The translations under genes and the position numbers were made by a program. A stretch of 64,000 nt of DNA from a virus: the IMG/VR virus record IMGVR_UViG_3300028840_003687; one strand, given 5' to 3'. How positions within the stretch are numbered: the stretch's first letter is position 1; every line of letters begins with the position of its first letter. The notes beneath the pieces are model-generated. The model searched no databases and was not told the DNA's origin. It worked only from the letters and a program-made list of their open reading frames with translations. Shown here one piece after another: positions 878 to 59,210 of the stretch.

Positions 878-1089
878 GCTGCGGCGACTGCAAGCACGTC
901 CGGACGGTCCTGCACGCCCCGTTCGTGCCCGAGACCGTGAAGGTCACGTTCCACTGGCGCCCGCCGTTCATCCGGCGCGAGGTGATCACCCACGATCGGA
1001 TCCGCATGGACTGGTGCCATCGCTATCCGAAGTCGGTGCTCGCGAAGCACAAGTGCGGAGAGTACGAGCCGATGGAGGCGAACTTATGA
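874..1089 (+). CDS. small hypothetical protein
   Basis: 71-aa ORF, ATGA start/stop overlap with upstream gene (translational coupling); several Cys/His. Confidence 0.4.
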   Translation: MSCGDCKHVRTVLHAPFVPETVKVTFHWRPPFIRREVITHDRIRMDWCHRYPKSVLAKHKCGEYEPMEANL

Positions 1090-1478
1090 GGATCCTCGTC
1101 TGTGGCAGCCGCGGCGCCAGCACGTCCTTCGTGGTCGATCGCTTGGACCACCTGCTAGGCCAGGTGTACAGGGGCACGAAGACGATCATCCACGGCGCAG
1201 CCCGGGGCGCCGACACCGGCGCTGGCATGCTCGCCCGCCACCTGGGCCTCTTCGAGGAGTCCTACCCGGCTGCCTGGGAGCGCGACGGGAAGGCCGCCGG
1301 CCCGATCCGGAACCAGCGCATGCTGGACGAAGGCGATCCCGACCGCGTCATCGCGTTCTGGGACGGGAAGTCGAAGGGCACGCTGGACATGATCTCGCGA
1401 GCGACCGCCGCGGGAATCCAGGTCTGGATCGAACCGCTCCAGAGCCAAGAGCCGGCGCAGGGGGAGCTGGGGCTATGA
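1087..1478 (+). CDS. SLOG-superfamily YspA-like protein (DUF2493-type phage protein)
   Basis: MRILVCGSR...IIHGAARGADTGAG...AGPIRNQRMLDEG...AFWDGKSKGT pattern matches the GSR / GAARGAD / GPxRNQ signature of DUF2493/SLOG proteins; ATGA overlap with the upstream ORF. Confidence 0.7.
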
Positions 1479-2797: not shown

Positions 2798-3223
2798 ATG
2801 CCCGGAAACAAGCTCTACAACCCCGGCCAGCCGTCGCTCGCGCAGCGGCTGAACCACGCGTCCCGCACGCGGCAGGCTGGCTACTCGAAGACGAACCGAG
2901 AGGAAGTGCTCCTCTTCAAGCGGCGCATCGCCGACGGCATGGATCCCGAGGAGGCCCGCAAGGGCACGAAGATCTCGAAGCGGATGGTCCCGGACATCCT
3001 CGCCGGCCGCACCTGGGCCTCGGTGATCCTGCTCGTGCTGATCGCGACGGTCACGATGGGCAACAGCTGCGTCGCAGGCAACGACTATACGGTCACCTGC
3101 CAGGGCATCAACTACCCGCTCTGTCGGGACGTGCCCTACGACTACCCCTGCCTCTGCCTGAGCGCGCCGGACGGCGTGACGTCGCAGCGGGCCCAGGAGC
3201 TGAGGTACCTGAACGACCGATGA
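2798..3223 (+). CDS. hypothetical protein (basic N-terminus, Cys-rich C-terminus)
   Basis: 141-aa ORF; ATGATG overlap with the next gene. Confidence 0.45.
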   Translation: MPGNKLYNPGQPSLAQRLNHASRTRQAGYSKTNREEVLLFKRRIADGMDPEEARKGTKISKRMVPDILAGRTWASVILLVLIATVTMGNSCVAGNDYTVTCQGINYPLCRDVPYDYPCLCLSAPDGVTSQRAQELRYLNDR

Positions 3224-6177: not shown

Positions 6178-7164
6178 ATGGGCTACATCACCTACACGCA
6201 TGTGGAGCGACTCGGCCACCCGAACGTCGACGGCCTGCTGATCGGCGACTGCTACATCTTCCCGAAGCTCGACGGCGCGAACGCTGTGCTCTGGAGCGAT
6301 CGGGAGAAGGGCGGCGTATGCACAGGCTCGAGACGGCGCGACCTCACGGTAGAAGGCTCGGCCGACAACCACGGCTTCCGTGCGACCATGCAGGAGCTGT
6401 GGAATAACGGCGACCTGGAGTGGATCCAGGACACCTACGATGGCGTGAAGTTCCCGATCTTCTACGGCGAGTGGATGGTGCCGCACACTCTGAAGACCTA
6501 CCGGGAGGACGCCTGGCGTCGCTTCTACGTCTTCGATGCGCGATGCCCAGACACGGGACGCTACCTACACTACGACACCTGGGCTCCCCAGCTGATCGAG
6601 TATTACGGTCACGTCGTCGAGCCGCTCGCGAAGATCACGAACCCGACGGAAGAGGACATCGTCCGGATGCGGGACGTCATCAACACCTACCTGATCTCCG
6701 AGAACAGCGGAGTCGGGGAGGGCGTGGTCGTCAAGAACTACGACTTCGTCAACCACGTCGGCAAGACGGTCTGGGGCAAGAGCGTCCGCAACGACTTCAA
6801 GGAAGACAACAAGCGTGCGTTCGGGACCCCGGAGCATCAAGGCAGCTTCCAGGTCGAGTGCGCGATCGCCGAGGAGTACGTCACCCAGGCGTTCGTCGAG
6901 AAGACGCGAGCGAAGATCGTGATGGCCATGGCTGAGCAGGCCTGGAGAGACGATCCGGCGCTCCGGGACATGAGCGCTCAGCGGATCGCTGACGCTCAAC
7001 GGGGCTCTCTGATCCCCCGGCTGCTGGAGACCGTCTTCCACGAGCTGCTCGACGAAGAGACGGCGGCGTTCGTGAAGAAGCACAAGAACCCGACGATCGA
7101 CTTCAAGAAGCTGCGCGGGTTCGTTGTCGCGCAGGTGAAGAAGCACGCTGGCGACCTGTTCTAG
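6178..7164 (+). CDS. ATP-dependent RNA ligase, Rnl2-like nucleotidyltransferase (a minimal DNA ligase is not excluded)
   Basis: Covalent nucleotidyltransferase motifs in order: motif I KxDGxN (FPKLDGANAV), motif IV EGVVVK, motif V (GKTVWGK); ~330 aa with a non-OB C-terminal region, as in Rnl2. Confidence 0.6.
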   Translation: MGYITYTHVERLGHPNVDGLLIGDCYIFPKLDGANAVLWSDREKGGVCTGSRRRDLTVEGSADNHGFRATMQELWNNGDLEWIQDTYDGVKFPIFYGEWMVPHTLKTYREDAWRRFYVFDARCPDTGRYLHYDTWAPQLIEYYGHVVEPLAKITNPTEEDIVRMRDVINTYLISENSGVGEGVVVKNYDFVNHVGKTVWGKSVRNDFKEDNKRAFGTPEHQGSFQVECAIAEEYVTQAFVEKTRAKIVMAMAEQAWRDDPALRDMSAQRIADAQRGSLIPRLLETVFHELLDEETAAFVKKHKNPTIDFKKLRGFVVAQVKKHAGDLF

Positions 7165-7170
7165 GTCATC

Positions 7171-7249
7171 TGGGGCGTAGCTCAAGGGCAAGAGCACTGG
7201 CCATCTGCAGTATACGGCCAGCGACGCGGGTTGGAGTCCCGCCGCCTCA
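7171..7249 (+). ncRNA. tRNA-like element with non-canonical anticodon arm
   Basis: 7-bp acceptor stem TGGGGCG/CGCCTCA (one G-T), D-arm GCTC-AAGGGCAA-GAGC, T-arm GCGGG-TTGGAGT-CCCGC; the anticodon arm is a 6-bp stem CTGGCC/GGCCAG closing a 13-nt loop; T-loop is TTGG rather than TTCG; no CCA. Confidence 0.3.
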
Positions 7250-7285
7250 GTGCTAGCCTGGCGCCTCCCTACACAGGAGGCTGTC

Positions 7286-8017
7286 ATGCTGACCCGACTT
7301 CTCGCTCTCTTCGTCCTGCTCTTTGCGCTGCCCAGCGGGGCGGCGGTCTTTTCCGAGACCCAGAACTCGATCACGTTCACGTCGAACAACCCGTTCGGCT
7401 CGAGCCCGTCGCTCGTCGACCCGGCGTTCTTCGCCGAGTTCCCCTTGGGCGTGAACCCGTTCACGATCAGCTCCAGCTACGACGATGCGGCTTCGACGTT
7501 CGACCAGTGCTTCGGACCTGGCATCGACGACTGCTACCTGGTCACTACCTCGGGCGCGACGTTGTCGATCACGCTTGCCGGCGAGACGTTCACCCAGGCG
7601 GACTTCGACTTCACGAACGCATTCCTGACGCCAGCCGAGGCGAACAGCTTCGACCCGATCGACGGCGCGGTCTTCCCTGCGCTGGTGACGACCGACGTCG
7701 CCGGAATCAGCTCGGTGAACACGCTTGGCACGGCCAACGTGAACCGCTTCGGCCTGCTCGATCGGTGGTCGCTCGAAGGCGTCGTCCTCCAGGTGAGCCT
7801 ACCTGAGGCGTCGAACCTGCTGCCCGATCCGCTCGGCTTCGACGGCTTCAACTTCTACACGCAGGGCGTCGATCGCACCGGCGCGTTGATCATCTACGAC
7901 AACGTGCTGGACCAGACCGGCTACGCGTTCATCACGAACCCGGAGCCCGGGGCGGCGGTGCTGATGGGCCTGGGGCTCATGGGGCTCGCCGGGCTCAGCA
8001 AGCGCAAGCGGGTCTGA
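7286..8017 (+). CDS. secreted PEP-CTERM domain protein (predicted exosortase substrate)
   Basis: AGGAGG RBS 7 nt upstream; N-terminal signal peptide (MLTRLLALFVLLFALPSGAAVF); C-terminus ...ITNPEPGAAVLMGLGLMGLAGLSKRKRV is PEP motif + TM helix + basic cluster. Confidence 0.65.
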   Translation: MLTRLLALFVLLFALPSGAAVFSETQNSITFTSNNPFGSSPSLVDPAFFAEFPLGVNPFTISSSYDDAASTFDQCFGPGIDDCYLVTTSGATLSITLAGETFTQADFDFTNAFLTPAEANSFDPIDGAVFPALVTTDVAGISSVNTLGTANVNRFGLLDRWSLEGVVLQVSLPEASNLLPDPLGFDGFNFYTQGVDRTGALIIYDNVLDQTGYAFITNPEPGAAVLMGLGLMGLAGLSKRKRV

Positions 8018-8414: not shown

Positions 8415-8921
8415 TCAGCGTGTCGTCCGACGCCATCCCGCCACCGCCAGGCCCAGGATACCAAGAACGAGCAGGAGCAGCATCCCAGGTTCGGGCACGT
8501 ACTCCTTCGAGGTCTGCATCGGAAGGTGGTTGCTGTTTCCGCTCTCCACGACCGCGTGCTCCGCCTCGAATTCGGCGAGCTGCTCCGGCGTCCATGTCTG
8601 AACGGCCCGCAAGGCGTTGAACCCTTCCGGGTAGGGCTTGCCGGCGTGCGCCTTGCAGACGAGCGGCCCTTCGTCGCCTCCGCCGTAGCGGATCGTTTCG
8701 AGGCGGCCCAGGAGCGTCCCATCGGGCTGCTCGCGGATGTTCGTGAGGAAGTTGCAGCGGCGCCCGTCGACGCTGTGCTGGCTCGGGTAGCAGCAGCTCC
8801 AGGCTTTGACGACGCGCTCGTCGCCCTCGACTGCCGGCGGCTGGTACAGGTGGACGTCGAACTTCTCGTGGACGGCCGGGATCTCAGGCCAGTCTTCCGG
8901 GTGGGCTTCACTGTGGGGCAT
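8415..8921 (-). CDS. PEP-CTERM-like C-terminally anchored protein (no obvious signal peptide)
   Basis: Genuine GC3-rich codon usage; C-terminus ...YVPEPGMLLLLVLGILGLAVAGWRRTTR is PEP + TM + RR; Cys-containing middle region (WSCCYP...RRCNF). Confidence 0.5.
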   Translation of the reverse strand: MPHSEAHPEDWPEIPAVHEKFDVHLYQPPAVEGDERVVKAWSCCYPSQHSVDGRRCNFLTNIREQPDGTLLGRLETIRYGGGDEGPLVCKAHAGKPYPEGFNALRAVQTWTPEQLAEFEAEHAVVESGNSNHLPMQTSKEYVPEPGMLLLLVLGILGLAVAGWRRTTR

Positions 8922-9237
8922 TGCAGGCTCCTGTCGTGTCGATGTATAGGGTAGCGTGTCCGCCTACGGTCACATCGTCTGTGTCCCACCGCTCGGTGCC
9001 CAGCGCCTGCTGGCCGTCGCTGCGGGACCCGTTGATTCCGATCTCCGCCCCGCTGATGCAGGGGTTGTGGTGGCATGCGACCTGAAGAACCGCTAGCGCT
9101 CCGAGGGTCATCCACGTCATCCAGGTGATGCGGTCTCCACCGAACATCCGATGCCCGGTCTCCGCAACGCATGCGATGGTCAGGACGAACGGCAGGCCGT
9201 AGATCACGACGCCCAGGAAGTGCAGTGTCGATTCCAT
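8908..9237 (-). CDS. small membrane/secreted protein
   Basis: MESTLHFLGVVIYGLPFVLTIACVA hydrophobic N-terminus plus a second hydrophobic segment; ATGA overlap with the primase stop. Confidence 0.45.
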   Translation of the reverse strand: MESTLHFLGVVIYGLPFVLTIACVAETGHRMFGGDRITWMTWMTLGALAVLQVACHHNPCISGAEIGINGSRSDGQQALGTERWDTDDVTVGGHATLYIDTTGACNAPQ

Positions 9238-11588
9238 CAGAAGATGTCCTCCTGCTCCGGGCCGGGAAGTTCGATCTCCTCTTCGGGCTCTTCCCCGACC
9301 CAATCACCCTGACCATAGACCTCGACCCACCTCTCGCGGCAATCCTCGAGGTCCATGAACTGGTAGACCTTCCGACGGCCCGTCGAGACCGACGAGTTGC
9401 CCTTCTTCACCGGAGCGACCTTGCTCAGGAAGCGACCCCAGTGAACGCGCGTCTTCGGGTTTCGGAAGCTCTTGCGCTTCGTGTACTCCAGGTAGTCCTG
9501 GTAGAGGGTGTCAGTCAGCACGACCTGCGGCCACGGCACGCTGCCAGGATCGTCGTCGAGCATGCGGCCCTCGACCAGCTTGTCGAACCACCACTGTTCC
9601 TCGGTGTCGTAGCTCTGCATCTGCTGCTCCTGCAGCGCCATCGTCGTCGGAACGTGGCGGACATCAAAGCCGGAAAGATCGTAGTTGAGCAGGTTGTAGA
9701 GAAACCCCTCTCGCCCTCCGTTGTCCATCTGCTGTTGAATCGCACCGAAGTACTCAGCGTCCCGGGCCCGTGCATCGCTCACGTCAAGAACGAGGAAGCG
9801 GCGCTCGCTCCGACTGTGGGCCGGAACGACCCAGTCATGGTTCGAGGCCATCATGAGGTGCAGGCAGTTAGTCGCGGTTTCGATGTCGACGCCCTTGGCC
9901 TCGATCTGCATCGTATCCTCGGTGACGATCATCTTCAGCACGCCTTCGTGCTTCTTGTCGCCGGCGTAGAAGGCCTCGTCCGCGAAGATGAAGACGCAGT
10001 CCCGGAGGTGGGCGTTGAAGTTCCCGACGAGCTGGCTGGAGTGTCCGACCTGCATGTAGTGTCGGCCCAGGAGGGCCCCGAGCTGCTTCGCGAGGAACGA
10101 CTTCCCCGTCCCCTGCTGGCCGCGCATCACGATTGCCGTCTGCCCAGGCTCGCCGGGATGCTGGATCATTCGGGCCATCCAGCCCATTACGTATTCGAAG
10201 TAGGTGTCCTTGCCTTGGCAGACGTTTTCGCGGATGTGCTCTTCGAGCTTGTCCCACCGCCCCGGGCGTGCTTCACAGGAGAAGCCTCTCCAGAGGTTGT
10301 ACGAGTCCGGCACTTCCTGGTTCGGAACGAAGATGACCCGCTTGAACTGTCGCCGGTCCGGATGCTTCAGCCACCAGTCGCCCAGGGGCATGTACTTCGG
10401 GTTCCCGTCCTTGTCGGACCCGACCTCCACCCGTCGGTTCATGTGCGCGTTCTTGAAGTCGCCGAAGCTCATTGACGAGAGGCGCGAGCGCCGGAGGATC
10501 GGATCGTCCAGCTCTTCGATCACGCGGCAGCGTCCCCCGAAGTTCTCGATCACCGAGTAGCGGTCATTCATCGCCGCCAGGTTCGGATCGATCGCGAATT
10601 CCTTCGCCTTCCCGATCTGGCGTTTCGCATAGCTTTCGACGTTCGCGCCCTTGTCGAGCACTGAGTCGCTGATGCCGAAGTCCGGGTCCGTGATCAGCGA
10701 GAAGATGACCTCGTCGGGCACGTTGCAGCGAACAAGGTTGCAGACGCAATCGAATAGCCAGCTCGATCGCGAGTCGTCTTCCTTGGGCGGTTCGTCGGGA
10801 TGCCGCCCCTGGACGATGATGACCTTCACACGGTCGGGCACGTCCCACTCGTCCAGCTCGTCCATCGTGGCGATGCGGGCAATGTTTCCGCTGATCTCGA
10901 CCGTCTGGGACGACGCTCCGAACAGCTCGTTCGTCTGCGTGGGCGCGGCCGGCGTGAACTGCGAGAGCGAGTAGATCCGGCTCTGGTCGAAGACCTCGAC
11001 CTTCGCCAGCTCCTCGCTCCGACCCTTCGCGCGCTTCTTCGCGTCGGGGACGTTGACGGTCCCTGGCAGCCGCATGATGCGATCGACGTTGTGGCAGTTG
11101 TCCGCGCCGAAGAGCAGCTCGAGCTGCAGGTTCCAGCGCTTCGCGGTCTCGGCCAGGCCGACGTCGCCGTTGATCTCGAACTCCTCATCGAGCCGCCAGA
11201 AGCCTTGGTAGCCGCCGCCCGAGAAGATGACCGCCGTGGGCTTCGGAACGCCGGCCGGCGGATCCAGCAGCTGGGTCAGGGCGCGCTCTCGCTCTGCTTG
11301 GAGATCCTGACCGTCACGCGGGTCGACGTCGACGTGCAGCCAGCGCATGCCCCGCATGTCCTCGCGGAGTGCCTTCTTGTCCATCGGTCCACGCGTCGGG
11401 TTGACGTGGAAGTAGATGTTGCGGGTGCCGTTGTACTTCTCGATCCACTCCGCGCATTCGGTGTCCGTCTCGGCCTCGAACGTCGCGGTGGTGATCGCCT
11501 TGCGATCCACGGCGATCGCAGTCAGCACCCAGAGCCCAGAGGGCTCGTACTGCTTCAGGAACTCGATTGCTGCCGGGGTATCGGTCAT
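9237..11588 (-). CDS. bifunctional primase-polymerase / superfamily-3 (D5/P4-type) replicative helicase
   Basis: 783 aa; N-terminal prim-pol-like region; C-terminal SF3 helicase with Walker A GQQGTGKS and Walker B IFADEA. Confidence 0.8.
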   Translation of the reverse strand: MTDTPAAIEFLKQYEPSGLWVLTAIAVDRKAITTATFEAETDTECAEWIEKYNGTRNIYFHVNPTRGPMDKKALREDMRGMRWLHVDVDPRDGQDLQAERERALTQLLDPPAGVPKPTAVIFSGGGYQGFWRLDEEFEINGDVGLAETAKRWNLQLELLFGADNCHNVDRIMRLPGTVNVPDAKKRAKGRSEELAKVEVFDQSRIYSLSQFTPAAPTQTNELFGASSQTVEISGNIARIATMDELDEWDVPDRVKVIIVQGRHPDEPPKEDDSRSSWLFDCVCNLVRCNVPDEVIFSLITDPDFGISDSVLDKGANVESYAKRQIGKAKEFAIDPNLAAMNDRYSVIENFGGRCRVIEELDDPILRRSRLSSMSFGDFKNAHMNRRVEVGSDKDGNPKYMPLGDWWLKHPDRRQFKRVIFVPNQEVPDSYNLWRGFSCEARPGRWDKLEEHIRENVCQGKDTYFEYVMGWMARMIQHPGEPGQTAIVMRGQQGTGKSFLAKQLGALLGRHYMQVGHSSQLVGNFNAHLRDCVFIFADEAFYAGDKKHEGVLKMIVTEDTMQIEAKGVDIETATNCLHLMMASNHDWVVPAHSRSERRFLVLDVSDARARDAEYFGAIQQQMDNGGREGFLYNLLNYDLSGFDVRHVPTTMALQEQQMQSYDTEEQWWFDKLVEGRMLDDDPGSVPWPQVVLTDTLYQDYLEYTKRKSFRNPKTRVHWGRFLSKVAPVKKGNSSVSTGRRKVYQFMDLEDCRERWVEVYGQGDWVGEEPEEEIELPGPEQEDIF

Positions 11589-12876: not shown

Positions 12877-13057
12877 CGTCTTCGCCCCTTTCGTTTCCCT
12901 CGGCCACGGGGCGCGGAGAGGATTTCTCCGTAGGCTCCGCTGCGGGCGGAGGGGTGGAGCATTTTAGGCAGCCAGTTGGTGACATATCTTTCGGAACTGG
13001 AAACTCATAGCCGCACACGATGCAGCGCCATATCCAGCCGCTCTCCCATACGCTCAC
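12869..13057 (-). CDS. small zinc-ribbon protein
   Basis: 62 aa with CIVCG...CLKC (two CxxC pairs). Confidence 0.45.
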   Translation of the reverse strand: MSVWESGWIWRCIVCGYEFPVPKDMSPTGCLKCSTPPPAAEPTEKSSPRPVAEGNERGEDDE

Positions 13058-15135
13058 ATCGAATCTCCCCAGCTCGAGCCCAGCTCCACGTCGACCTTCG
13101 ACGGGACCGTGAGCTGCGGGATGCAGTGCTCCATGATCTCGGCCGCGGCGTTCGCGTCGCCTTCACCATGGAAGCTGCCTGTGATCTCGTCGTGGACCTG
13201 GAGCTGCAGGTAGTGACCGTCGCGATGAACGTCGACCACGGCCTTCTTCGTCTGGTCCGCTGCGCTGCCCTGGATGACGCGGTTGAGCGCCTTCTGGGTC
13301 CAGTCGTACTTGCCATCCTTCCCGACCGGGAAGTGGCAGTGGCGGCCCAGGATCGTGATCACGTAGCCGCGCTCGTTCGCCTTGTGCTGGGCGAACTTCG
13401 ACAGCTCTCTCACGAATGGCAGCTTCTCGTCGAACGTCTCCAGCAGCTTGCGGCCTTCCGCGCCGGCGCCCTCCATCAGCCGCCCTCCGCACTCCTGGGC
13501 GTACGCCGCTGCCGACGTGCGGTCTTCGATGTCGAAGTACTTGGTGTCCGCCCACGCCTTGCCGTAGACGACCCACGCCTTGGGCAGGCCCAGCTTCACG
13601 CAGAGCTTCGCGCCGCCCAGGCCGTAGATCTTGCCCAGGAAGATCTCCTTCGCGGGCTTGCGCTCGATCCCGGCCATCTCCGCGACCATTGTATGGTTGT
13701 CCGTATTTCGGTCGCGCCGGTACTGCTCCGCTGCCGCCACGGCTGCGTTGCGTGCGTGCTGGCTGATGCCTTTGCCCTTGCGAAGATCTCCGACCGGGCA
13801 GTTCTCCGCGTAGTGCATCATCATCCGCGGCTCCTGCTGGCTGTAGTCCAGGGAGCCCCAGGTCATGCCTTCCTCAGGCAGGTAGATCGCACGCCACATC
13901 TTGGCGAACTCGTCGCGCGCCGGCTGCTGCTGCAGGTTCGGCTTCTCGCTGGACAGGCGGCCGTAGCGAGCGCCCGATCCGTCGTCCAGGCTCGCCTCGT
14001 CGGTCGAGTCGTTGCGCCGGAGCTGGTTGAACGTCGTGTGGATGCGGCCGTTCACCATGTGCTCGCGGATCGAGGCGACGAAGGTGGTCCGGAGCTTGTT
14101 CGTCTTCCGAGCCCAGAGGATCCGCTCCGCGACCGGGTGATCGATCGCGTGCAGGGTCTCCTGCTTGATCTCCGGCTGGCCCTTCGAGGTCTTCTTGAGG
14201 GTCACCCCAATCGCTTCGAGCGCCGGAGCGACCTGGCTGGGCGCCATGATCCCCTTCCCCTTGGCGGTCCCGATCCTCACCCCCGTGAGGCGGTGGATCT
14301 CGTCCAGGGCGGCCTGCTCTTCCCCGCGGGCCCACTGCTCGACCTGGGCCAGGCGGTCCTGATCGATCCGCACGCCACGGCGCCGCATCAGCGTGAGGAT
14401 GGGCTGGACCTGGCACTCGAGATTGAAGATGTCCCAGAGGCCCGCCTCTTCGATTCGCGCCTCCTGGCGCCGCAGAATGGCCAGGGGCTCGTCCACGTCT
14501 CCGAGCCCATACGGGCCCACGAAACGCGCGGGGAGCTTGTGGAGCCCCGCCTTCGGATCGACGTTGAAGTGCTCTGCAGCCGTCCGCAGGAGCGCCTCGT
14601 CCTTGCCCTCGCGGCCGTACCGCTGCGAGAGGGCCTGGAGGCCGTAATTGAACTGCAGCTCGTCCAGGAGCGGCTCAGCGACCCCGATATCGCGCCAGGT
14701 GCAGCCGCCCTCGATGAAGTCGGCGCCTTCCTGGGCCAGCCAGTCGCAGTCGTAGCCCAGGTTGCAGCCGACGAGCTGCCCCCGGAACGATCGGGCCTGG
14801 GCCTCGATGTACGCCAGGGCCGCCTGGGGATTCTCGACGTTGTCGCCCCCCTCGTGGAAGAGCGGGACGTAGAACCCGGGCCCGCCCTCGATCCGGAACG
14901 AGTAGCCGACCAGCCGGGAGTCGTCGCGGCGGACGCCGGGGCCGAGCTTCTTCAGGTGTGGGTCGCAGGTCTCGACGTCGATCGCGACTCGCGCGCTGGC
15001 GTTCGTCGGCCAGTCCGGTAGCTCACCCAGGCGGGGCGGGCGCCAGTCGGACTCCGGCACGAACATCGGCAGCTGGGTCTCGGCTTCGTTCGTCTGGTCC
15101 GCGTGCTTCCGGCCGCTACTCCTGGGCTTCGCCAT
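13054..15135 (-). CDS. family-A DNA polymerase (Pol I-like) with 3'-5' exonuclease domain
   Basis: Exo I (IDVETCD), Pol motif A (DYSQQEPR), motif C (QVHDEI), KIYGLGGAKL; 693 aa. Confidence 0.9.
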   Translation of the reverse strand: MAKPRSSGRKHADQTNEAETQLPMFVPESDWRPPRLGELPDWPTNASARVAIDVETCDPHLKKLGPGVRRDDSRLVGYSFRIEGGPGFYVPLFHEGGDNVENPQAALAYIEAQARSFRGQLVGCNLGYDCDWLAQEGADFIEGGCTWRDIGVAEPLLDELQFNYGLQALSQRYGREGKDEALLRTAAEHFNVDPKAGLHKLPARFVGPYGLGDVDEPLAILRRQEARIEEAGLWDIFNLECQVQPILTLMRRRGVRIDQDRLAQVEQWARGEEQAALDEIHRLTGVRIGTAKGKGIMAPSQVAPALEAIGVTLKKTSKGQPEIKQETLHAIDHPVAERILWARKTNKLRTTFVASIREHMVNGRIHTTFNQLRRNDSTDEASLDDGSGARYGRLSSEKPNLQQQPARDEFAKMWRAIYLPEEGMTWGSLDYSQQEPRMMMHYAENCPVGDLRKGKGISQHARNAAVAAAEQYRRDRNTDNHTMVAEMAGIERKPAKEIFLGKIYGLGGAKLCVKLGLPKAWVVYGKAWADTKYFDIEDRTSAAAYAQECGGRLMEGAGAEGRKLLETFDEKLPFVRELSKFAQHKANERGYVITILGRHCHFPVGKDGKYDWTQKALNRVIQGSAADQTKKAVVDVHRDGHYLQLQVHDEITGSFHGEGDANAAAEIMEHCIPQLTVPSKVDVELGSSWGDSM

Positions 15136-24089: not shown

Positions 24090-24272
24090 TTATTCCTCCC
24101 TGATGTCTTGCTTTGCTTCGCGCCGCGCCCTCTTGTGGAAGCGGCGTCTGATCTTCTTGATGACCCCTGGTCGGTCGAGGCCGACGAGCCAGCGGCGCCA
24201 GTTCTTGCTGAATGCGTCCGTGGTATCGCCGTCCTTCGCCGGCGGCAGGGCCTTGCGACCCTTGTAGCTCAT
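24090..24272 (-). CDS. small basic protein
   Basis: 60 aa, Lys/Arg-rich. Confidence 0.35.
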   Translation of the reverse strand: MSYKGRKALPPAKDGDTTDAFSKNWRRWLVGLDRPGVIKKIRRRFHKRARREAKQDIREE

Positions 24273-25873
24273 GCCTTGTGCTTCCCCTTCCAGATCGTGA
24301 TGATCTGGCGCCGGCCATTGTACATGGTCACGATCGCGCTCTGCGACCAGCTGGATAGCCCGTCGTTGTAGCCCTGGTCAAGGTCGCCCCAGACGCCAGC
24401 CGTCGCGGTCCCGTGGATCAGGCTCGCGGTGTGGTCGTGGCCGCGGTTGGCCTTCATGCCCATCTTCGCGTAGCCGCGGGCTGAGCCTCGCGCGCCGTTC
24501 GCCCCCAGGTGGCCGTGCTGGCCGAACTGGATGCCCTTGCGGATGTGGTCCTGATCGCGGCGGAGGAACGTGATCTCGTCCCGGACGCCCAGCCAGCGGC
24601 TCACGGTCTCGGGCAGGTAGAAGTCGTCGTCTCCGTCGCGGATCGCCTTCAGCTTCGCGAGCACGCATTCGAGCAGGAAGACCGCGTTCGGCGGGTCTTC
24701 GCGCCAGTCGGCGTAGTGGGTCCACTTCTCGATCATGTCGTCGTGGTTCGCGTTCACGACGTAGGTCTTGCACCACGGGCGGTAGGCGACGTGCGAGAGG
24801 AACGAGACCGTGTCCTTGCACATCTCCTCGACGCTCTCTTCGCCGTCGACGAACTTCTCGAACCGCTTGTAGGGATCCTTGTCATCGTGGTGGTTCCGCG
24901 GCGGGTCGAAGAGGTCGTGCATGAACTCCTCCTCCGGTCGCAGCTCGTCCTTGATCCCACCTGGGCCCCAGGTCCGCTCGAAGAGGTCGGGGTCCGGCTT
25001 GGAGAGGTGGATGTCGCCCCAGTTGACCGCGAAGACCGTCTTCCCCGTCGCGTTCACCGTCTTCCCGTCCCGAGCGATCACGTCGAGGTCGTAGATCTCG
25101 CCGTCGCGCCCAGCGTGAAGCTGCCGGACCCACCAGTCGCCGCTCGAGTTCACCTCGGCGATCAGCCCGCCGTACGCGTGGTGGTGCTCTGCCTTGATCC
25201 CCGCCTTCTTCTGGAGGTAGTTCATCTGGCCGACGGTGCCGGTCGTGTACATGAACTTCGCAGGATCGAGCTTCGACGTCGGGACGCACTGCAGGCGGAT
25301 CGTCGCGTGCGGGAAGATCGAGCTGGCCGAGCCGGTGTAGGTCTCGTAGCCCGCGAGAGGGTTGTCTGCGGTCGGCAGATCGTTCGTGTGGCCGCACCAG
25401 TGGAGCCCAGGGGCGAGCGCGAGGTACTCGTCGGAGAAGAACTCGGTCGCCATCGGATCGAACCACAGCTCGCTCTCGCGCTCTTCGTCGGTCCCCGGCT
25501 TGACGCTCATCTTGCCGAACGCGTTCTTGTTGTAGGTGAAGCGCGCGACGTGCAGCTCCGCCTTCCAGAACTTCTTCAGCGCGAGGATGTTCTCCCAGAC
25601 GTCTGGGTGGATGTGCGTGCAGCTTTGGAGGGACGTCAGGATGTACCGCTTCACGCCCTTCTTCGGCAGCGGTAGCGGTTTGGCGGTATTCGGCTTCAGC
25701 GTGCCGCCAGCCAGCGGCTTCGTGTCGCGCAGGCCTAGCTTGTTGACGTAGTGGTAGACGGTACCACGCGAAATTTCGAGGCGCTTCGCGATGCCTCGCA
25801 CGTTCCCGTTCGTTTGCTCCCAAAGAGCGACTACCTGTGCATCTGTGATCCCCTTGTTGCGCGTATCGCTCAC
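24269..25873 (-). CDS. HTH-domain protein fused to a calcineurin-like metallophosphoesterase
   Basis: N-terminal HTH (GIAKRLEISRGTVYHYV); metallophosphoesterase motifs in order GDIH ... NANHDD ... GH ... GHDH. Confidence 0.5.
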   Translation of the reverse strand: MSDTRNKGITDAQVVALWEQTNGNVRGIAKRLEISRGTVYHYVNKLGLRDTKPLAGGTLKPNTAKPLPLPKKGVKRYILTSLQSCTHIHPDVWENILALKKFWKAELHVARFTYNKNAFGKMSVKPGTDEERESELWFDPMATEFFSDEYLALAPGLHWCGHTNDLPTADNPLAGYETYTGSASSIFPHATIRLQCVPTSKLDPAKFMYTTGTVGQMNYLQKKAGIKAEHHHAYGGLIAEVNSSGDWWVRQLHAGRDGEIYDLDVIARDGKTVNATGKTVFAVNWGDIHLSKPDPDLFERTWGPGGIKDELRPEEEFMHDLFDPPRNHHDDKDPYKRFEKFVDGEESVEEMCKDTVSFLSHVAYRPWCKTYVVNANHDDMIEKWTHYADWREDPPNAVFLLECVLAKLKAIRDGDDDFYLPETVSRWLGVRDEITFLRRDQDHIRKGIQFGQHGHLGANGARGSARGYAKMGMKANRGHDHTASLIHGTATAGVWGDLDQGYNDGLSSWSQSAIVTMYNGRRQIITIWKGKHKA

Positions 25874-52980: not shown

Positions 52981-53039
52981 GGTGTTAGTTGGGCGCCTCG
53001 GGTTTCAAAATTTTTTGTGGGAAATTTGGCGATTCGGTT

Positions 53040-53790
53040 TTTGATTTTTGCTTATCGATTGCCAGGTCGCAAATGAGCAATATGGATGCAATTTGCCAGC
53101 AATTTGCGCATTGCCTGCTTCTTCGTTGCACATGAGTTGCGCATTCTGCACATGCCTTGCCTCCTACTTGCACATTGCTTGCTCATAAGCTGCTCATTTT
53201 GCGTATGACTTGCATATCAAACTCACATTTGTGATGCATACATGCACATGAGTTGCTCATTTTGCCTATAAGCTGCCCCCATACTGCGCACCCCTTGCAC
53301 ATGAGTTGCTCATTTTGCACATGACATGCACACCATCTGCCCCCTTCTGCCTATAAGCTGCCCCTCCCCTGCATCCGAGTTGCTCATTTTGCCTGTCCCA
53401 TGCACCCCCCTTGCACACGGGGTGCCTGTGGGCTGCGCATTCTGCACATGGGGTGCCTGCTGGATGCCCCCCTTCTGCACACCCCCTTCCTAAGATGCCC
53501 CCTTCCTGCACACCCCCTTCCTGTGGGCTGCGCTCGAGTTGCGCATTCTGCCGGTCCGCTGCCGGGAAGGTTCTGGCATTTGCTAGCAGGTGCGTGTTAG
53601 TTGCCGGTCCGCTTCTAGAACCTTCTCGCAGCGAGTGCGCAACTCGATCCGCCGCTGCACATTTCTTGCTAGCAGGTTCCGGCATCTGCGCATGCCAACT
53701 TTCGCGGCGGCACCCCGCTAGCGCCCCGATAGCACCCCGTGCGCAACTGCAAGGGGCCGGCAACCGATGCGCACCTGCTAGCACCTGCAC
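53040..53790. repeat. repeat-dense non-coding region (origin / pac / operator array candidate)
   Basis: >=4 copies of TGCACATGAGTTGCTCATTTTGC (contains the dyad ATGAG-TTG-CTCAT) and variants (GAGTTGCGCATTCTGC x3); CCTATAAGCTGCCCC x3; GCACACCCCCTTCC x3; GCTAGC-containing TGCTAGCAGG x3; no credible ORF (the 53266..53880 ORF is rejected). Confidence 0.7.
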
Positions 53791-53791
53791 G

Positions 53792-54412
53792 CTAGTTGCC
53801 TTCGCTCGAGACTTGCACATCGACTGCGCTCGAGATTCCTTCGTTTTGCAGGTCCTCTTCCGTAGGCACCAGACCGGCAAGCTCTGAGAGGACGATGCGC
53901 AACGCTCGCCGCCCTTCGGGGGAAAGCTTCTGCACGAGAGTTGCGTCTAGCGCGCCGACTCCCTGCTGCTTCTCTGCCGGCAGGTCGCCGATCACCCGAT
54001 CGGCACGATCTATGACTTTCGCCAGCAACCCATCGGCATATTGCGTGACTGTCCCCACGGGTTCGCCATCCCGGTTGAACCGATCAACTTGCACGCCTTC
54101 TACCGCTCGGCGGGTGGCTTCCCGCACCAAAGAATCACGATACCTGCACACTGCCTCCCGGACTGCTGCCGCGAATTCTGGCACCCTTGCCTGGTAGGTG
54201 CGTGCGACTTGCGTGCTGCACCCCGCGACATCGGCAGCGCGTGCGAGTCCGCCATGCGTTTCGACTTCCCGCAGGTACACCGCGCGAGCAGGCGCCGGGA
54301 ATGTGACCGGCATGTAACCCGCAGACGTGTCGCGGGCCCGCTCAATGACTTCTAAGGCCTCGATGGCCCGCTCCCGCTCCCGCTCCGATTTTACGATTTC
54401 ATCCTCGCTCAT
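53792..54412 (-). CDS. putative terminase small subunit / DNA-binding protein
   Basis: 206 aa; N-terminal HTH-like LREVETHGGLARAADVAGCSTQVARTY resembles the TerS N-terminal DNA-binding pattern; first gene of the leftward block. Confidence 0.4.
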   Translation of the reverse strand: MSEDEIVKSERERERAIEALEVIERARDTSAGYMPVTFPAPARAVYLREVETHGGLARAADVAGCSTQVARTYQARVPEFAAAVREAVCRYRDSLVREATRRAVEGVQVDRFNRDGEPVGTVTQYADGLLAKVIDRADRVIGDLPAEKQQGVGALDATLVQKLSPEGRRALRIVLSELAGLVPTEEDLQNEGISSAVDVQVSSEGN

Positions 54413-54479
54413 GGCCCCTCACATAGCCCAGCGGGCACGATAGGACCACCCCTAAAAGCATGGGTAAAGATTTTCTCTG

Positions 54480-54570
54480 GTGCTGGTAATAGTTCACGTA
54501 AGTACCTGTTTTTATTATACTTTACTAGTAACACTAGTAACACTAGTAAATATACATATTAGACACGCAT
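54480..54570. repeat. AT-rich island with ACTAGTAAC tandem repeats at the divergence point
   Basis: TTTTTATTATACTTTACTAGTAACACTAGTAACACTAGTAAATATACATATTAG inside an otherwise GC-rich genome. Confidence 0.5.
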
Positions 54571-54814
54571 CGCCCCATCACCCCTGCGCAGCGCACCCGC
54601 GTTTTTCCCCCACGCAACTCGCGCCCCCTACCGGTGCTGGTGTACCACACGCAACTTCGATCCTAACTCCGCGTCCCATAAGCGAAAATCGACGCACCGG
54701 TGTCTAAAAATTGCCAGTGCTTCCCGGTGCAGAAATTGCCCCCACGGGTACACTTTCGCCCCCTTATCGCCCAAAATGCGCAACTCGAGCGCAAATCGCG
54801 TTTTTTGTCCGCCA

Positions 54815-54888
54815 CCCCCTCAAGCTTTCGCGCCACCCACCGATAGATCAGTCACGGCCCACCGAACGGGCCGCAGGAGCAAACCAGA
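54815..54888 (+). promoter_or_regulatory. conserved promoter/leader cassette copy 1
   Basis: CCCTCAAGC-N15-CCGATAGAT...GGAGCAAACCAGA-ATG. Confidence 0.5.
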
Positions 54889-55053
54889 ATGAGCGAAACC
54901 ATGGTCCAACTCGTAACCGTCGACCCCACCGAACGCGTGGAGCGCGTCGTGCCCCTCGGGTTCGCCTATGCGCAACTCGGGTGCGGATACCAGCGGGTGA
55001 CGATTTCCGACCCCGAGACCGGCATCGTCATGCAGCAGGAAAGCAACTCATGA
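54889..55053 (+). CDS. small hypothetical protein
   Basis: 54 aa, preceded by the GGAGCAAACC leader; ATGA overlap with the next gene. Confidence 0.4.
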   Translation: MSETMVQLVTVDPTERVERVVPLGFAYAQLGCGYQRVTISDPETGIVMQQESNS

Positions 55054-55487
55054 GCAAGCGAATCCCGAACAACGCCCGCAGCCGAGTTGCCGCTTGGCTG
55101 CACGAAAACGAGCCCGTCCGCAATTTGCGCATCGAATGCGTCGAACATGCCACCCGCAGGGAAATCCCTGTTGCGGACGCGATGCGTGCTCTCGAACAGG
55201 CAAATCTCGCGCGCTTTATCCCGGGGGTGGGATGGGTGTCGAATTTCGTCACCGGCGACAAGTGCGCAGAACTCGCGCAACACGAGCGCAGCGGGAAGGG
55301 GTGGTTCGTCCGCTCGGAGCGCAAGCGCAAGGCACCGGCAACTCTCGAGCATCCCGACCGATGCGCAGATCCTGCGCAGGTGACGTGCAACTCGTGTGAG
55401 TCTTCGTGGTGCGAGCGCTGCGATCCGGCGCCCGGTCCGCTCTGCCACGTCTGCCACGGTCGCGGATACTCGACTGCGCAACTCTAG
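55050..55487 (+). CDS. hypothetical protein with C-terminal zinc-ribbon
   Basis: 145 aa from MSKRIP; C-terminus CNSCESSWCERCDPAPGPLCHVCHGRG. Confidence 0.5.
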   Translation: MSKRIPNNARSRVAAWLHENEPVRNLRIECVEHATRREIPVADAMRALEQANLARFIPGVGWVSNFVTGDKCAELAQHERSGKGWFVRSERKRKAPATLEHPDRCADPAQVTCNSCESSWCERCDPAPGPLCHVCHGRGYSTAQL

Positions 55488-55514
55488 CGCAACAAACAAA
55501 AATCGCGTTCGGCA

Positions 55515-55598
55515 GCGAAAAACCTCTAAGGTTATTCGGGGCCCGACCGATAGGTATATCATAAGGGGCAGCAAACCAGCCCCCAGGAGCAAACCAAA
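55515..55598 (+). promoter_or_regulatory. conserved promoter/leader cassette copy 2
   Basis: GAAAAACCTCTAAGG-N15-CCGATAGG-TATATCATAAGG...GGAGCAAACCAAA-ATG. Confidence 0.5.
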
Positions 55599-55721
55599 AT
55601 GAAGCTTGTTTTCGCCGCCCTCGCCCTCGGATTTTTCGCCCTCGCCATGCAGGTCGATATCCCCGACGCCTCGAACCACACCGGCAACGTTCACGCGAAC
55701 GCGCAGCTTGCTGGCAACTAA
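55599..55721 (+). CDS. small secreted/membrane peptide
   Basis: 40 aa MKLVFAALALGFFALAMQ... (below track threshold), preceded by the conserved leader, ends ...LAGN-TAA. Confidence 0.35.
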   Translation: MKLVFAALALGFFALAMQVDIPDASNHTGNVHANAQLAGN

Positions 55722-55804
55722 CTCGCGCCACGCGCGCCAGCCGATCGCCTCGCACCCTCACGGGTCGCGAGGTTTTCGCGGTAGAAACTAACGGAGCAAA
55801 CCTA

Positions 55805-56518
55805 ATGCGATACCAACGCGAATTTACGTGGGGCACGGACGAAAGCACGGGCGAGGACGGATGGCTGCCCGCGTGGCTCGACGGCGTCGAGGACCCCTAT
55901 GCGTTTATCGGGGACGGAGTTGCGCACGACGCGCTAGAGCACGAGGCGCACGAATCCGACGGAGACCTCGAAAACGAGACCCGCGCGCTAGGTGCCGTCT
56001 ATTTCGTCCGCGGCGAATCGGGATGGTTCGATGCGCAGCGAAGTGGCAACCCCGACGTAGGTGAAAATCTCGCCTCGGATTTCATCGAACTATATCGAGC
56101 TTTTGCCTATGCGGGAGACTCGATCGGGGACGCGTGGCCGCTCGGGTCCGACCCGGACGCGCATGCGATGGCCGCGACGTTTCGCGATATCGTGCGCAAC
56201 GGGATCCGGCAGGCGATCGACGAGCATTCGACCGATTCGGATGAGCGGGACACCCTCGCAAGCTTCGCGCGTGGCCGCGAGTGGTTCGTGCAACTCATGT
56301 GCGAGGGATACGCAGCCGCGCATGAGCGCTTCAACGGCAACTCCAGTGCAGCGCGTGAGCTGTTCGAGCGCATCTCGTCTGCTAGCAGCGATGCCGCAAG
56401 CCATGCGCAGGACCACGGATACGCTCGTTTCCTAGTTGACATCGACACGGAAGCCGGCAAGTTTAGTGCAACGTGCGAGGTTTTCGAAAATCCCACGTAC
56501 GGCGACGATATGCGCTAA
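55805..56518 (+). CDS. highly acidic hypothetical protein
   Basis: 237 aa with many D/E; GGAGCAAACC leader. Confidence 0.55.
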   Translation: MRYQREFTWGTDESTGEDGWLPAWLDGVEDPYAFIGDGVAHDALEHEAHESDGDLENETRALGAVYFVRGESGWFDAQRSGNPDVGENLASDFIELYRAFAYAGDSIGDAWPLGSDPDAHAMAATFRDIVRNGIRQAIDEHSTDSDERDTLASFARGREWFVQLMCEGYAAAHERFNGNSSAARELFERISSASSDAASHAQDHGYARFLVDIDTEAGKFSATCEVFENPTYGDDMR

Positions 56519-56539
56519 AGCTGCACATCGGTCAGGAGA

Positions 56540-56581
56540 GCGCAGTCCGTAGGCAACTACAGGCTGCGCTTTTTTGTTTGT
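56540..56581 (+). terminator. rho-independent terminator
   Basis: GCGCAGTCCGTAG-GCAA-CTACAGGCTGCGC stem (GNRA-type GCAA loop) followed by TTTTTTGTTTG. Confidence 0.6.
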
Positions 56582-56589
56582 CCGTTTCG

Positions 56590-56875
56590 AATTTTGCTAT
56601 CAAGTTGCACAATCTCGAGTCAGCAGCCGGTGCGCAGTTTGAAAAATGCACTCAAGCTGCACATGCGCAACTCGCAAGCAACTATCAAAACTGCGAATTT
56701 TGCACTCAAGCTGCGCATCGGCAACTCATGTGCATCTCTCGAGCTTTCGAATTTTGCACTCAAGTTGCGCATCGCCCAACCGGCAACTCAGGTGCAATGT
56801 TCAGAATGCACTCAAGTTGCGCCTGGGCTGCACACGAACCATCACCTGAGTTGCACTCGAGACTCACGCCCGTAA
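56590..56875. repeat. array of five ~53-bp direct repeats (iteron-like)
   Basis: Units (A)TTTTGCACTCAAG(C/T)TGCGCATCG..GCAACTCA at ~56595, 56647, 56701, 56755, 56807; ORFs 56594..56875 and 56646..56849 are rejected as artefacts of the repeats. Confidence 0.65.
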
Positions 56876-57000
56876 ATGGCCCGTATCGCGATTTTTCGAG
56901 GGTACCCGTCGGATCATACCGGCGACCGTTGGCACGATTCTCCGGCGATCCTGCGGCGCCTAACGCCACATGCGCAACTAGCATGTAACTAATAAAATAA

Positions 57001-57054
57001 CGAAAAAACATCAAAAACCCCTAAAGTTATGGGGGCACTAACCGATAGGGTAGT
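57001..57054 (+). promoter_or_regulatory. conserved promoter/leader cassette copy 3 (short leader)
   Basis: CGAAAAAACATCAAAAACCCCTAAAG-N15-CCGATAGGGTAGT-ATG. Confidence 0.5.
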
Positions 57055-57303
57055 ATGACTAAAAAACGGTTTTCCGATATATGCGCGGCGGCTGGCGTTC
57101 GATGGTCGCACAATCCCGATCTAGATACGATCGACGTGGACCCGCCTAGCGGATACGTGATAGCGGACACGGGCCTACACTATCTGTCGCACTTCATGCG
57201 AGGCTGGACGCGCGCGGAAGCTTACCAGCACATCGCCGCCGACCTAGCCGGTGGAATCGAAAAGTGCGAGCAGGCGGAATGCGACTACTGCGAAAAAAGC
57301 TAG
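57055..57303 (+). CDS. hypothetical protein
   Basis: 82 aa, C-terminal CEQAECDYCE. Confidence 0.5.
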   Translation: MTKKRFSDICAAAGVRWSHNPDLDTIDVDPPSGYVIADTGLHYLSHFMRGWTRAEAYQHIAADLAGGIEKCEQAECDYCEKS

Positions 57304-57357
57304 TTGCCTGTCTTTTGCTATTCAGGTTTCGGACTACTCACCGATAAGAGATACATA

Positions 57358-57630
57358 ATGCAGAAACTCGAATCCCTTCTAATCGCGCTGCGCGAGTCGT
57401 CGCCCACGGGCCGCATCGCGGCGACCGTTTCGCCCGAAGTCGATCGGGTGACCTATCACGCGCTCACGGTATGCGAGCATTGCGGCGGAGAAATCGCCGT
57501 CGGTGACGGTTTCGCATGGCAGGAGTGGGGGTGGTACCGGGGAGACTATCGCCGCGCGGAAGCGTACGCGGACGCTACCCGATACGCGCATCATGCGCAG
57601 GAAATGTGCAAGCGATTTTCTTTCGAATAG
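57358..57630 (+). CDS. hypothetical protein
   Basis: 90 aa from MQKLESLL; CEHCGGE motif. Confidence 0.45.
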   Translation: MQKLESLLIALRESSPTGRIAATVSPEVDRVTYHALTVCEHCGGEIAVGDGFAWQEWGWYRGDYRRAEAYADATRYAHHAQEMCKRFSFE

Positions 57631-57632
57631 CG

Positions 57633-57699
57633 CGAAAAAACTCTCAAGCGCGGGCGCCGCGCGCCGATAAGTAGATCATAACAACGGGAGCAAACCCAA
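57633..57699 (+). promoter_or_regulatory. conserved promoter/leader cassette copy 4
   Basis: GCGAAAAAACTCTCAAGCG-N15-CCGATAAG-TAGATCATAACAACGGGAGCAAACCCA-ATG. Confidence 0.5.
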
Positions 57700-57803
57700 T
57701 GATTTTCGAGTCCGTTCTGTTCTTTTCCTACACTGTCGCCATTTGCATGGGACTTGCCGCTCTTCGATAGAGCGCACCTAACACGCAACAAAGGAGCAAA
57801 CCA

Positions 57804-58355
57804 ATGGATATTCTGAACGTCCCGAAGGGGAAAATCCCGAAGCTTGACGCGCTCACGAGCGCGCGAGAGTACCGCATCCAGAGTGCAACTAGCGTGCGCA
57901 TTTCGTCCTACTGGGATGGCGGATCGAAGGATTCGTATTGCGCATACAATGCACACGGGGTGCCGGTCGATCTGCCGGCCCATGGCGGCGCGCCGCAATT
58001 CGGCGGCAACTCGGCCGATGTGCAACTCGACAGCAACGGGATCGCATATCTCGTGAATCACTCGATTTTCCGCGGAAAGCACATGCCGCCTACCGTCTAC
58101 TTGCCGGTTGCTGAATTCGAGCGATTCAAAGCGGAACTTGCCGCCGAGTTGCCGCAGGTAACTGAGATGCAGCTTCACGCGCTCGCAATTACTGCGCAAC
58201 TCAAGAGCAGCGCTCGCCTCGATGAGTGGACGCGCAAGTATGCGGCAGAAGACTGGGAAGCAACTCGCGCGCAGCTTCGCGATATGAAGCTCTTGCGCAA
58301 GAACAACGCAATCACGCCCGAGGGTCGAAACCTCGCGCGAGACGCGCGCATTTAA
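57804..58355 (+). CDS. hypothetical protein
   Basis: 183 aa; GGAGCAAACCA-ATG start context. Confidence 0.5.
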   Translation: MDILNVPKGKIPKLDALTSAREYRIQSATSVRISSYWDGGSKDSYCAYNAHGVPVDLPAHGGAPQFGGNSADVQLDSNGIAYLVNHSIFRGKHMPPTVYLPVAEFERFKAELAAELPQVTEMQLHALAITAQLKSSARLDEWTRKYAAEDWEATRAQLRDMKLLRKNNAITPEGRNLARDARI

Positions 58356-59201: not shown

Positions 59202-59210
59202 GGGCAACTA

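Follow-up and report, generated by a model that had tools for sequence, protein, structure and literature searches.

Does a gene that is shaped like a tRNA in every part except its anticodon arm still read codons, and does it act together with the RNA ligase gene directly in front of it? The question is raised by positions 6178–7285 of a 64,000-nt stretch of the viral record IMGVR_UViG_3300028840_003687 from IMG/VR (the whole stretch is called the window below), a tailed-phage genome with 63.9% G+C, where the gene of an Rnl2-like RNA ligase is followed after 6 nt by a tRNA-shaped gene with a 13-nt loop at the anticodon position. The reading that we favour, with a probability of about 0.42, is that this gene specifies a non-decoding, tRNA-derived RNA that would undergo tRNA-like processing and that is located in a tRNA-supply slot next to a nick-sealing ligase.

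The tRNA-like fold described in the initial annotation of the locus was borne out in all its parts. The acceptor, D and T arms are paired, all 22 stem pairs are standard pairs, the minimum-free-energy (MFE) fold of 7171–7250 is a cloverleaf, and the described length of 79 nt, starting 6 nt behind the ligase gene, is correct when the discriminator nucleotide is left out (80 nt with it; Table 1). ARAGORN and the Rfam covariance models, which had been proposed as a check, both call a tRNA gene at this place and no tmRNA. The match to RF00005 scores 47.9 bits against a gathering score of 29, covers all 71 model positions and has an E-value of 3.5e-9 in a local scan and of 3.7e-7 in that of the whole window, where it is the sole RNA-family match and the sole tRNA gene within 64 kb; canonical tRNAs of sister phages score 64–71 bits against the same model. 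The whole-window Rfam scan in gathering mode with default speed filters missed the gene, and laxer filters gave the 47.9 bits, demonstrating that standard pipelines can overlook tRNAs with large loop insertions and that default annotation filters can miss genes of this kind. The source sequence of about 69.6 kb was assembled independently by JGI, ENA and Logan, and these three other assemblies are 100% identical to the window over 7–17 kb, so the gene is not an assembly artefact. The loci L010, L011 and L012 are 100% identical to the window, including the tRNA, whereas the sister loci L005 and L013 differ from each other at 5 of 3741 positions, none of them in their tRNA.

The nucleotides of the tRNA core (U8, A14, G18, A21, G53:C61, U54, U55 and A58) are in place. 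The 19:56 pair of the elbow is C:G and not G:C, the T loop having G56 and not C56. By a T-arm scan of IMG/VR, GC instead of the canonical D-loop GG was found in at least 14 ordinary phage tRNAs with a G56 T loop. The C19:G56 swap is thus compensated, suggesting present or recent selection for the L-shaped fold. Phage tRNAs with the T loop UUGGAGU and a D-loop GC, in which the universal G19:C56 elbow is swapped to C19:G56, represent a class of their own, which in IMG/VR was seen at loci L128, L133, L140, L141, L150, L153, L154, L156, L162, L166, L176, L178 and L181; a literature search found no description of it. At these loci there are also class II bodies with long variable arms (in L154, Met(CAU) of 94 nt and Asn(GUU) of 90 nt) and a 95-nt call of 'Phe(AAA)' with a 6-bp stem and a 9-nt loop (in L176). 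At the base of the window tRNA, C7170 could pair with G7250 (-1:73) to give an acceptor stem of 8 bp, which is how ARAGORN draws it, and this pair may shift the RNase P cut, so that the G-U pair would move to 4:69.

The anticodon arm is aberrant. The 6-bp stem closing a 13-nt loop, as initially annotated, is seen in the sequence, in the MFE fold, where the loop is predicted to be fully open, and in the covariance-model alignment, which has a 14-nt insertion in the anticodon arm where the consensus has 6 positions. The window tRNA does not have the 5-bp stem and 7-nt loop with U33 and a purine at 37, and no triplet of its loop stands in the canonical register with these two nucleotides. The ARAGORN label 'tRNA-Gln(CUG)' depends on a forced, poorly paired anticodon stem, and the intron mode of the same program returns 'Tyr(AUA) with an 8-nt intron' instead; since the two modes contradict each other, the anticodon assignment is unreliable and neither call is credible. 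Natural or mutant decoding tRNAs have anticodon loops of up to 8–10 nt (PMC5009743). Similar to frameshift-suppressor and mitochondrial tRNAs with expanded loops, the window tRNA has more than 7 nt in the loop of an otherwise normal cloverleaf, but their loops measure 8–10 nt, compared with 13 nt on a 6-bp stem here (PMC5009743), and such a loop size greatly exceeds the known range for a tRNA that is otherwise perfect. Judged from its sequence, a 6-bp/13-nt arm without a registered triplet rules out ordinary codon reading, and decoding has probably been lost.

Several other interpretations of the element were rejected. The intron-containing or permuted tRNA suggested in the initial annotation did not hold up: there are only 6 extra nt, the loop is open, no bulge-helix-bulge and no intron of more than 200 nt were found, and the anticodon of the ARAGORN intron call, AUA with C37, is implausible. 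A permuted tRNA and every other Rfam family were rejected for 7171–7250 by the ARAGORN and Rfam scans; as for tmRNA, ARAGORN reports none and the tmRNA models of the Rfam tRNA clan give no match. The loop, which holds two palindromic hexamers, was also considered as an antisense, guide or restriction-site feature, and this was rejected as well: no copy or complement of it was found elsewhere in the window (with up to 2 mismatches for the complement), and CTGCAG is not avoided there (33 sites versus 21.7 expected). Searches for relatives of the arm gave no match to its exact string in IMG/VR, chance matches only for the stem pattern with any 5–13-nt loop (in IMG/VR and, among the matches listed, in the genome collection), and 32 matches to the D-arm pattern, all inside coding sequence; blastn of the tRNA against 50,697 phage records gave nothing useful.

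Table 1. Coordinates of the features discussed (window positions, except for the rows that name another locus).
Feature	Position	Strand	Remarks
Rnl2-like ATP-dependent RNA ligase gene	6178–7164	+	328 aa; stop codon TAG at 7162–7164
Spacer	7165–7170	+	6 nt, from the ligase stop codon to tRNA position 1
tRNA-shaped gene	7171–7250	+	80 nt with discriminator (G7250), 79 nt without; CCA not encoded
Acceptor stem	7171–7177/7243–7249	+	7 bp with one G-U pair, G3:U70 (G7173:U7247)
D arm (7180–7195)	7180–7183/7192–7195	+	
D loop	7184–7191	+	AAGGGCAA; read as G18 then C19
Aberrant anticodon arm	7197–7221	+	6-bp stem CUGGCC/GGCCAG (7197–7202/7216–7221), 13-nt loop
Loop at the anticodon position	7203–7215	+	AUCUGCAGUAUAC; 13 nt
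T arm (7226–7242)	7226–7230/7238–7242	+	T loop UUGGAGU at 7231–7237
Leader of the next gene	7251–7285	+	35 nt; ribosome-binding site AGGAGG at 7275–7280; ATG at 7286
Slot cargo gene	7286–8017	+	243-aa secreted protein with PEP-CTERM sorting signal; TIGR02595 18.6 bits (cutoff 16)
Primase gene	9237–11588	-	
Family A DNA polymerase gene	13054–15135	-	
T5 A1-like protein gene	24269–25873	-	534 aa
Class II tRNA of L005	4994–5088		starts 6 nt after the ligase stop codon
Class II tRNA of L013	3494–3588		starts 6 nt after the ligase stop codon
Ala(UGC)-like remnant of L002	4800–4878		directly after tRNA-Lys(CUU)

The protein encoded upstream of the tRNA-shaped gene is an Rnl2-like RNA ligase that forms a distant new subfamily. 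The motifs I, IV and V named in the initial annotation were confirmed, and the motifs read in the protein are KLDGAN (K30), YGEW (E98), EGVVVK (E181–K186) and WGKSVR (K201), so that motifs I (KxDG), III, IV and V of the covalent nucleotidyltransferases are all present; K30, D32, G33, E98, E181, G182, K186 and K201 are invariant in the comparison of the ligase with 66 homologues. The protein matches Pfam PF09414 (RNA_ligase; E 2.9e-13) and, over its full length, phrog_548 'RNA ligase' (E 1.6e-30). It has at least 1,792 homologues, nearly all metagenomic, and its full-length matches in cultured phages include Cellulophaga phi19:3, Clostridium phage Amboise and Bacillus phage G. A search with the ligase profile found no match among the PDB sequences, and a fold search was used instead: the AlphaFold2 model is confident (pLDDT 92.9), and Foldseek ranks full-length T4 Rnl2 at the top (E 9e-10). 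The model has a predicted nucleotidyltransferase domain (residues ~1–215), nearest to the Rnl2 clade (T4 Rnl2) and not to DNA ligases, and a predicted helical C-terminal domain (~226–323), with residues 226–323 modelled as helices at the place of the oligonucleotide-binding (OB) fold of DNA ligases. The nearest known system is T4 RNA ligase 2 (gp24.1; PDB 1s68, 2hvq, 2hvr), and the proposed assignment to the Rnl2 type stands, in the wording 'Rnl2-like'. By its modelled fold, the enzyme is predicted to seal 3'-OH/5'-PO4 nicks. No relative of the ligase was found among 185,579 species genomes, which were searched for prophage relatives or a host.

PHROGs, Pfam and NCBIfam scans identified no kinase, phosphatase or 2H enzyme among the 34 open reading frames (ORFs) of the window. 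The large metallophosphoesterase to which the initial annotation had tentatively assigned end healing turned out to be a homologue of T5 A1, and was rejected for this role. It matches phrog_1745 (T5 A1/'DNA transfer') with an E-value of 3e-149, and is 34% identical to T5-like A1 and 42% identical to a protein of Pseudanabaena phage Pan1; it has the metallophosphoesterase-like motifs GDxH, NHD and GH and a weak N-terminal helix-turn-helix match, and no match to Pfam Metallophos. In the wider family, a minority of the ligase genes adjoin RNA-repair genes: P-loop kinases were found as downstream neighbours at about 5 of 122 loci, HD and Metallophos proteins at 3 each, and HAD_PNKP, RtcB and RlaP at 1 each. 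A ligase without a healing partner is nevertheless suited to one kind of break. AriB, the Toprim nuclease of PARIS, makes a nick in tRNA-Lys between positions 40 and 41 that has 3'-OH and 5'-phosphate ends; Thr and Asn tRNAs are further targets (PMC12409363). When the anticodon stem of a tRNA carries a single Toprim nick, T4 Rnl1 or Rnl2 seals it with no end healing (PMC12445682). As such nicks are directly ligatable, the ligase alone would by analogy be mechanistically sufficient against this class of nucleases in the window phage. The repair of PrrC-cleaved tRNA-Lys by T4 Pnkp and Rnl1 is likewise a case of a phage RNA ligase facing a host attack on tRNA; the window phage differs in that no healing enzyme was found and in that its ligase is not of the Rnl1 type, and the pathway, unlike that of T4, would serve only 3'-OH/5'-phosphate breaks.

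Across the ligase family, surveyed at about 160 loci (80 from metagenomes and 80 viral ones from IMG/VR), a tRNA of any kind lies within 2.5 kb of the ligase gene in 14 cases (8 metagenomic and 6 viral). The partnership between ligase and tRNA put forward in the initial annotation therefore stands in part: the adjacency and the misfit loop are real, but a tRNA is near only these few family ligases and the contents of the place next to the ligase vary, and nothing found here shows the tRNA-shaped RNA working together with the ligase. Beyond the sister lineage L013, a tRNA adjoins the ligase gene only in L023/L197, where a canonical tRNA-Tyr is located 40 nt upstream. This tRNA (2373–2460) has the anticodon GUA, and another distant locus, L031, has a His/Tyr/Asp trio at 2938–3165. 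Together with a tRNA-Asn of the close relative L008 these are tRNAs with GUN anticodons, with too few cases for a test; GUN-anticodon tRNAs have been reported as targets of colicin E5-type nucleases.

Within the close clade (ligases 61–78% identical, with a common gene order from a Band_7 protein to the primase), sequence comparison reveals that the space 3' of the ligase gene is a variable slot. In the window phage it holds the tRNA with the 13-nt loop and then a gene of a PEP-CTERM protein. In L005/L013 (ligase 77% identical) there is a 95-nt class II tRNA followed by an unrelated gene of 196 aa, which in L013 stands at the place of the cargo gene. The slot of L008/L014 (ligase 78% identical) has canonical tRNA-Lys(CUU) and tRNA-Asn(GUU), and that of L002 (68%) has tRNA-Lys(CUU) and an Ala(UGC)-like remnant whose D arm is broken. 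No tRNA-like element was detected with ARAGORN, Rfam or the T-arm scan in L001, L184, L186, L187, L268, L269 and L270, and L271 is uninformative, as its sequence stops 30 nt past the ligase gene. No flanking repeats of note were found around the slot.

The class II tRNA of L005/L013, with 41 bits, has intact acceptor, D, T and long variable arms, an encoded CCA, a Leu-like D arm, a 10-bp variable arm and the discriminator U73, and its anticodon arm consists of a 4-bp stem and the 6-nt loop AGCCGA. The window and L005 elements share the flanking strings CTGGGGCG and CCGCCTC at equal distances from the ligase gene, suggesting one ancestral locus with a remodelled interior; the leader of the next gene is also partly alignable with the corresponding segment of L005/L013. 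The L002 remnant, which was missed by both ARAGORN and Rfam, has G3:U70, A73, CCA, a canonical T arm and the 7-nt loop UUUGCAC, with no pairable D stem. AAG makes up 95% of the Lys codons and AAC 91% of the Asn codons of the phage. The canonical tRNAs of the clade thus read dominant codons and do not supplement codons that the phage rarely uses, and the resupply of depleted tRNAs fits better than codon compensation.

Under the favoured reading, the RNA would probably be transcribed together with the ligase and the downstream cargo gene, and RNase P and the host 3'-end processing would excise it to yield a normal L shape. The ligase and the slot would make up a loose 'repair and resupply' module against tRNA-cutting nucleases of the host, with the ligase resealing 3'-OH/5'-phosphate nicks without a healing enzyme and the slot providing replacement tRNAs. 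The RNA with the 13-nt loop would be a former supply tRNA that lost decoding via a loop insertion, and its persistence may be due only to its intact upper half, whose processing would part the mRNAs on either side and stabilise them. We favour this reading because the defect is limited to the anticodon arm, with all stem pairs and core nucleotides intact, because the compensated elbow matches that of the functional-looking phage tRNAs described above, and because the loop exceeds the 8–10 nt of decoding tRNAs (PMC5009743). It is further supported by the arm-defective tRNA of L005/L013 at the same distance from the ligase stop codon, by the sister slots, which vary from Lys(CUU) and Asn(GUU) through Lys(CUU) and an Ala-like remnant to none (seven lineages), and by the finding that no promoter-like or terminator-like site divides the ligase gene, the tRNA and the next gene. 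On the side of the ligase, the predicted catalytic domain is nearest to T4 Rnl2, no healing enzyme was found in the window, the canonical tRNAs of the clade read dominant codons, and Toprim nucleases nick the anticodon stems of Lys, Thr and Asn tRNAs with 3'-OH/5'-PO4 ends, a single nick of this kind being resealable by T4 Rnl2 alone (PMC12409363, PMC12445682, PMC11464382). A ligase without a healing enzyme beside a slot of Lys, Asn and arm-defective tRNAs fits the repair of Toprim-type nicks with 3'-OH and 5'-phosphate ends. The species 1 and 2 RNAs of T4 are small stable tRNA-like RNAs with no known decoding role; they and other phage 'pseudo' tRNAs are likewise tRNA-derived, processed by RNase P and located beside real tRNA genes, but such pseudo-tRNAs sit inside large tRNA clusters, whereas the element described here stands alone in the window as its sole tRNA gene, directly beside a protein-coding gene.

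A number of observations weigh against this reading. Every available copy of the window element is identical, so that neither covariation nor polymorphism gives a sign of selection, and a neutral young pseudogene would look alike. Two arm-defective tRNAs at one position could equally mean a selected function of the arm. The window tRNA, with the 3' flank GUGCUAG, has no encoded CCA, in contrast to the other tRNA genes of the clade. The ligases of the wider family mostly adjoin replication and nucleotide-metabolism genes, and a separate ATP-dependent DNA ligase is encoded upstream of seven of them. We know of no in vivo role in tRNA repair that has been established for Rnl2-type ligases.

If the arm were selected, the RNA could be a dedicated anti-defence partner, acting with the adjacent ligase as a decoy or competitive inhibitor of a host tRNA-cleaving nuclease or as a cleavage-resistant stand-in. 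Two lineages keep a perfectly folded tRNA body with an odd anticodon arm 6 nt past the ligase stop codon, the element is the only tRNA gene in 64 kb, the tRNA-Lys and tRNA-Asn of the sister phages belong to families with known anticodon-nuclease targets (PMC12409363), and phage tRNAs escape nucleases by changes in the anticodon loop (PMC10264068, PMC11464382). Variant tRNAs of phage T5 neutralise PARIS (AriB) (PMC11464382, PMC12409363, PMC10264068); they resemble the present case in their altered anticodon arms, as in the window, and in the Lys/Asn tRNAs of its sister lineages, but they keep a 7-nt loop and decoding, whereas the window loop has 13 nt and any resistance, decoy action or decoding of its RNA is putative. 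Literature searches found no precedent for a phage tRNA decoy, the ligase occurs without a tRNA in most members of the clade and at 146 of the about 160 family loci, the aberrant arms of the window and L005 share neither sequence nor shape, and no nuclease has been identified, which makes a selected anti-defence role of the arm unlikely, although worth keeping in mind. Its strictest form, a dedicated two-part system of the ligase and the abutting RNA, in which the oversized loop would be the working part, either as a bait for a host tRNA nuclease or as a substrate that is cut and that the ligase reseals into a working tRNA only once the host defence fires, appears very unlikely.

The intact tRNA body also leaves room for an RNA that is still charged or decoding, via a synthetase that ignores the anticodon (e.g., AlaRS via G3:U70), an unusual register or a use as a non-translational donor. 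Among 149 unique phage tRNAs sampled in passing, G3:U70, which the window tRNA has by standard numbering, was found in 4 of 6 tRNA-Ala and in 1 of 143 others; in the window loop a UGC precedes an A, as in tRNA-Ala(UGC), and a CUG is present too, and the sister remnant of L002 is Ala(UGC)-like with G3:U70, A73 and CCA. LeuRS and SerRS ignore the anticodon, and the class II body of L005 has a Leu-like D arm. However, the window tRNA has G73 and U1:A72 rather than the alanine-type A73 and G1:C72, an 8-bp stem left by RNase P would move the G-U pair to 4:69, the UGC is out of register and no triplet is in the canonical one with U33 and a purine at 37, CCA is not encoded, and the 13-nt loop is beyond that of any known decoding tRNA (PMC5009743). 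Alanine identity is thus a lead and not a finding, and a charged or decoding tRNA is quite doubtful. Protein-catalysed trimming, in which a nuclease would cut the 13-nt loop twice and the ligase would rejoin the ends to a 7-nt loop, is compatible with the adjoining ligase gene, with the directly ligatable Toprim ends and with several 6-nt deletions that restore a canonical loop with U33 and A37 (AU-CUG-AC without CAGUAU, AU-CUU-AC without GCAGUA), and double cuts are rejoined by T4 ligases in vitro (PMC12445682). Yet no candidate for the endonuclease was found, a bulge-helix-bulge motif is impossible with 6 extra nt, the process has no bacterial or phage precedent, and the L005 element cannot be rescued likewise, so that trimming is extremely improbable.

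To our knowledge, no natural role has yet been assigned to Rnl2-type phage ligases, and it is only in recent years that phage tRNAs have come to be seen as weapons against host tRNA-cutting nucleases. If functional, the RNA with the 13-nt loop would represent a novel type of tRNA mimic; as a relic, it would illustrate how the decay of phage tRNA genes proceeds inward from the anticodon arm while the signals for processing are retained. A two-part system of ligase and RNA, if true, would provide the first natural role for an Rnl2-type phage ligase.

The window also encodes the large subunit of ribonucleotide reductase, a Dda-like helicase and Pam3-like structural proteins, and no cultured phage resembles it at the DNA level. 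In addition to the slot cargo gene, a second gene of a PEP-CTERM secreted protein was found at 8415–8921 on the minus strand (TIGR02595, 18.1 bits), and it is conserved in L002 and L013. Such exosortase signals point to a Gram-negative or cyanobacterial host with an exosortase; PEP-CTERM proteins are an unusual cargo for a lytic-looking phage. A YAcAr (SLOG-family) gene is located a few genes upstream of the ligase gene (1086–1478, plus strand), and directly upstream of it in L186 (2557–2988) and L187 (2635–2997), while DUF4406 and MazG/PRA-PH genes recur near the ligases of the clade. Among short palindromes, GAGCTC is wholly absent from the window (0 versus about 22 expected), with AGCT over-represented, suggesting that a host restriction enzyme is being avoided. 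TTAA is nearly absent (3 versus 67) and CTAG is depleted (55 versus 212); CGATCG (109 versus 22), GATC and TCGA are over-represented three- to five-fold. Finally, about 6.5 kb of the window (~53000–59500), flanked by the late genes on the minus strand and by plus-strand genes beginning near 59.7 kb, has a lower G+C content (50–62%) and almost no ORF with high third-position G+C, and may hold small early genes or non-coding sequence.

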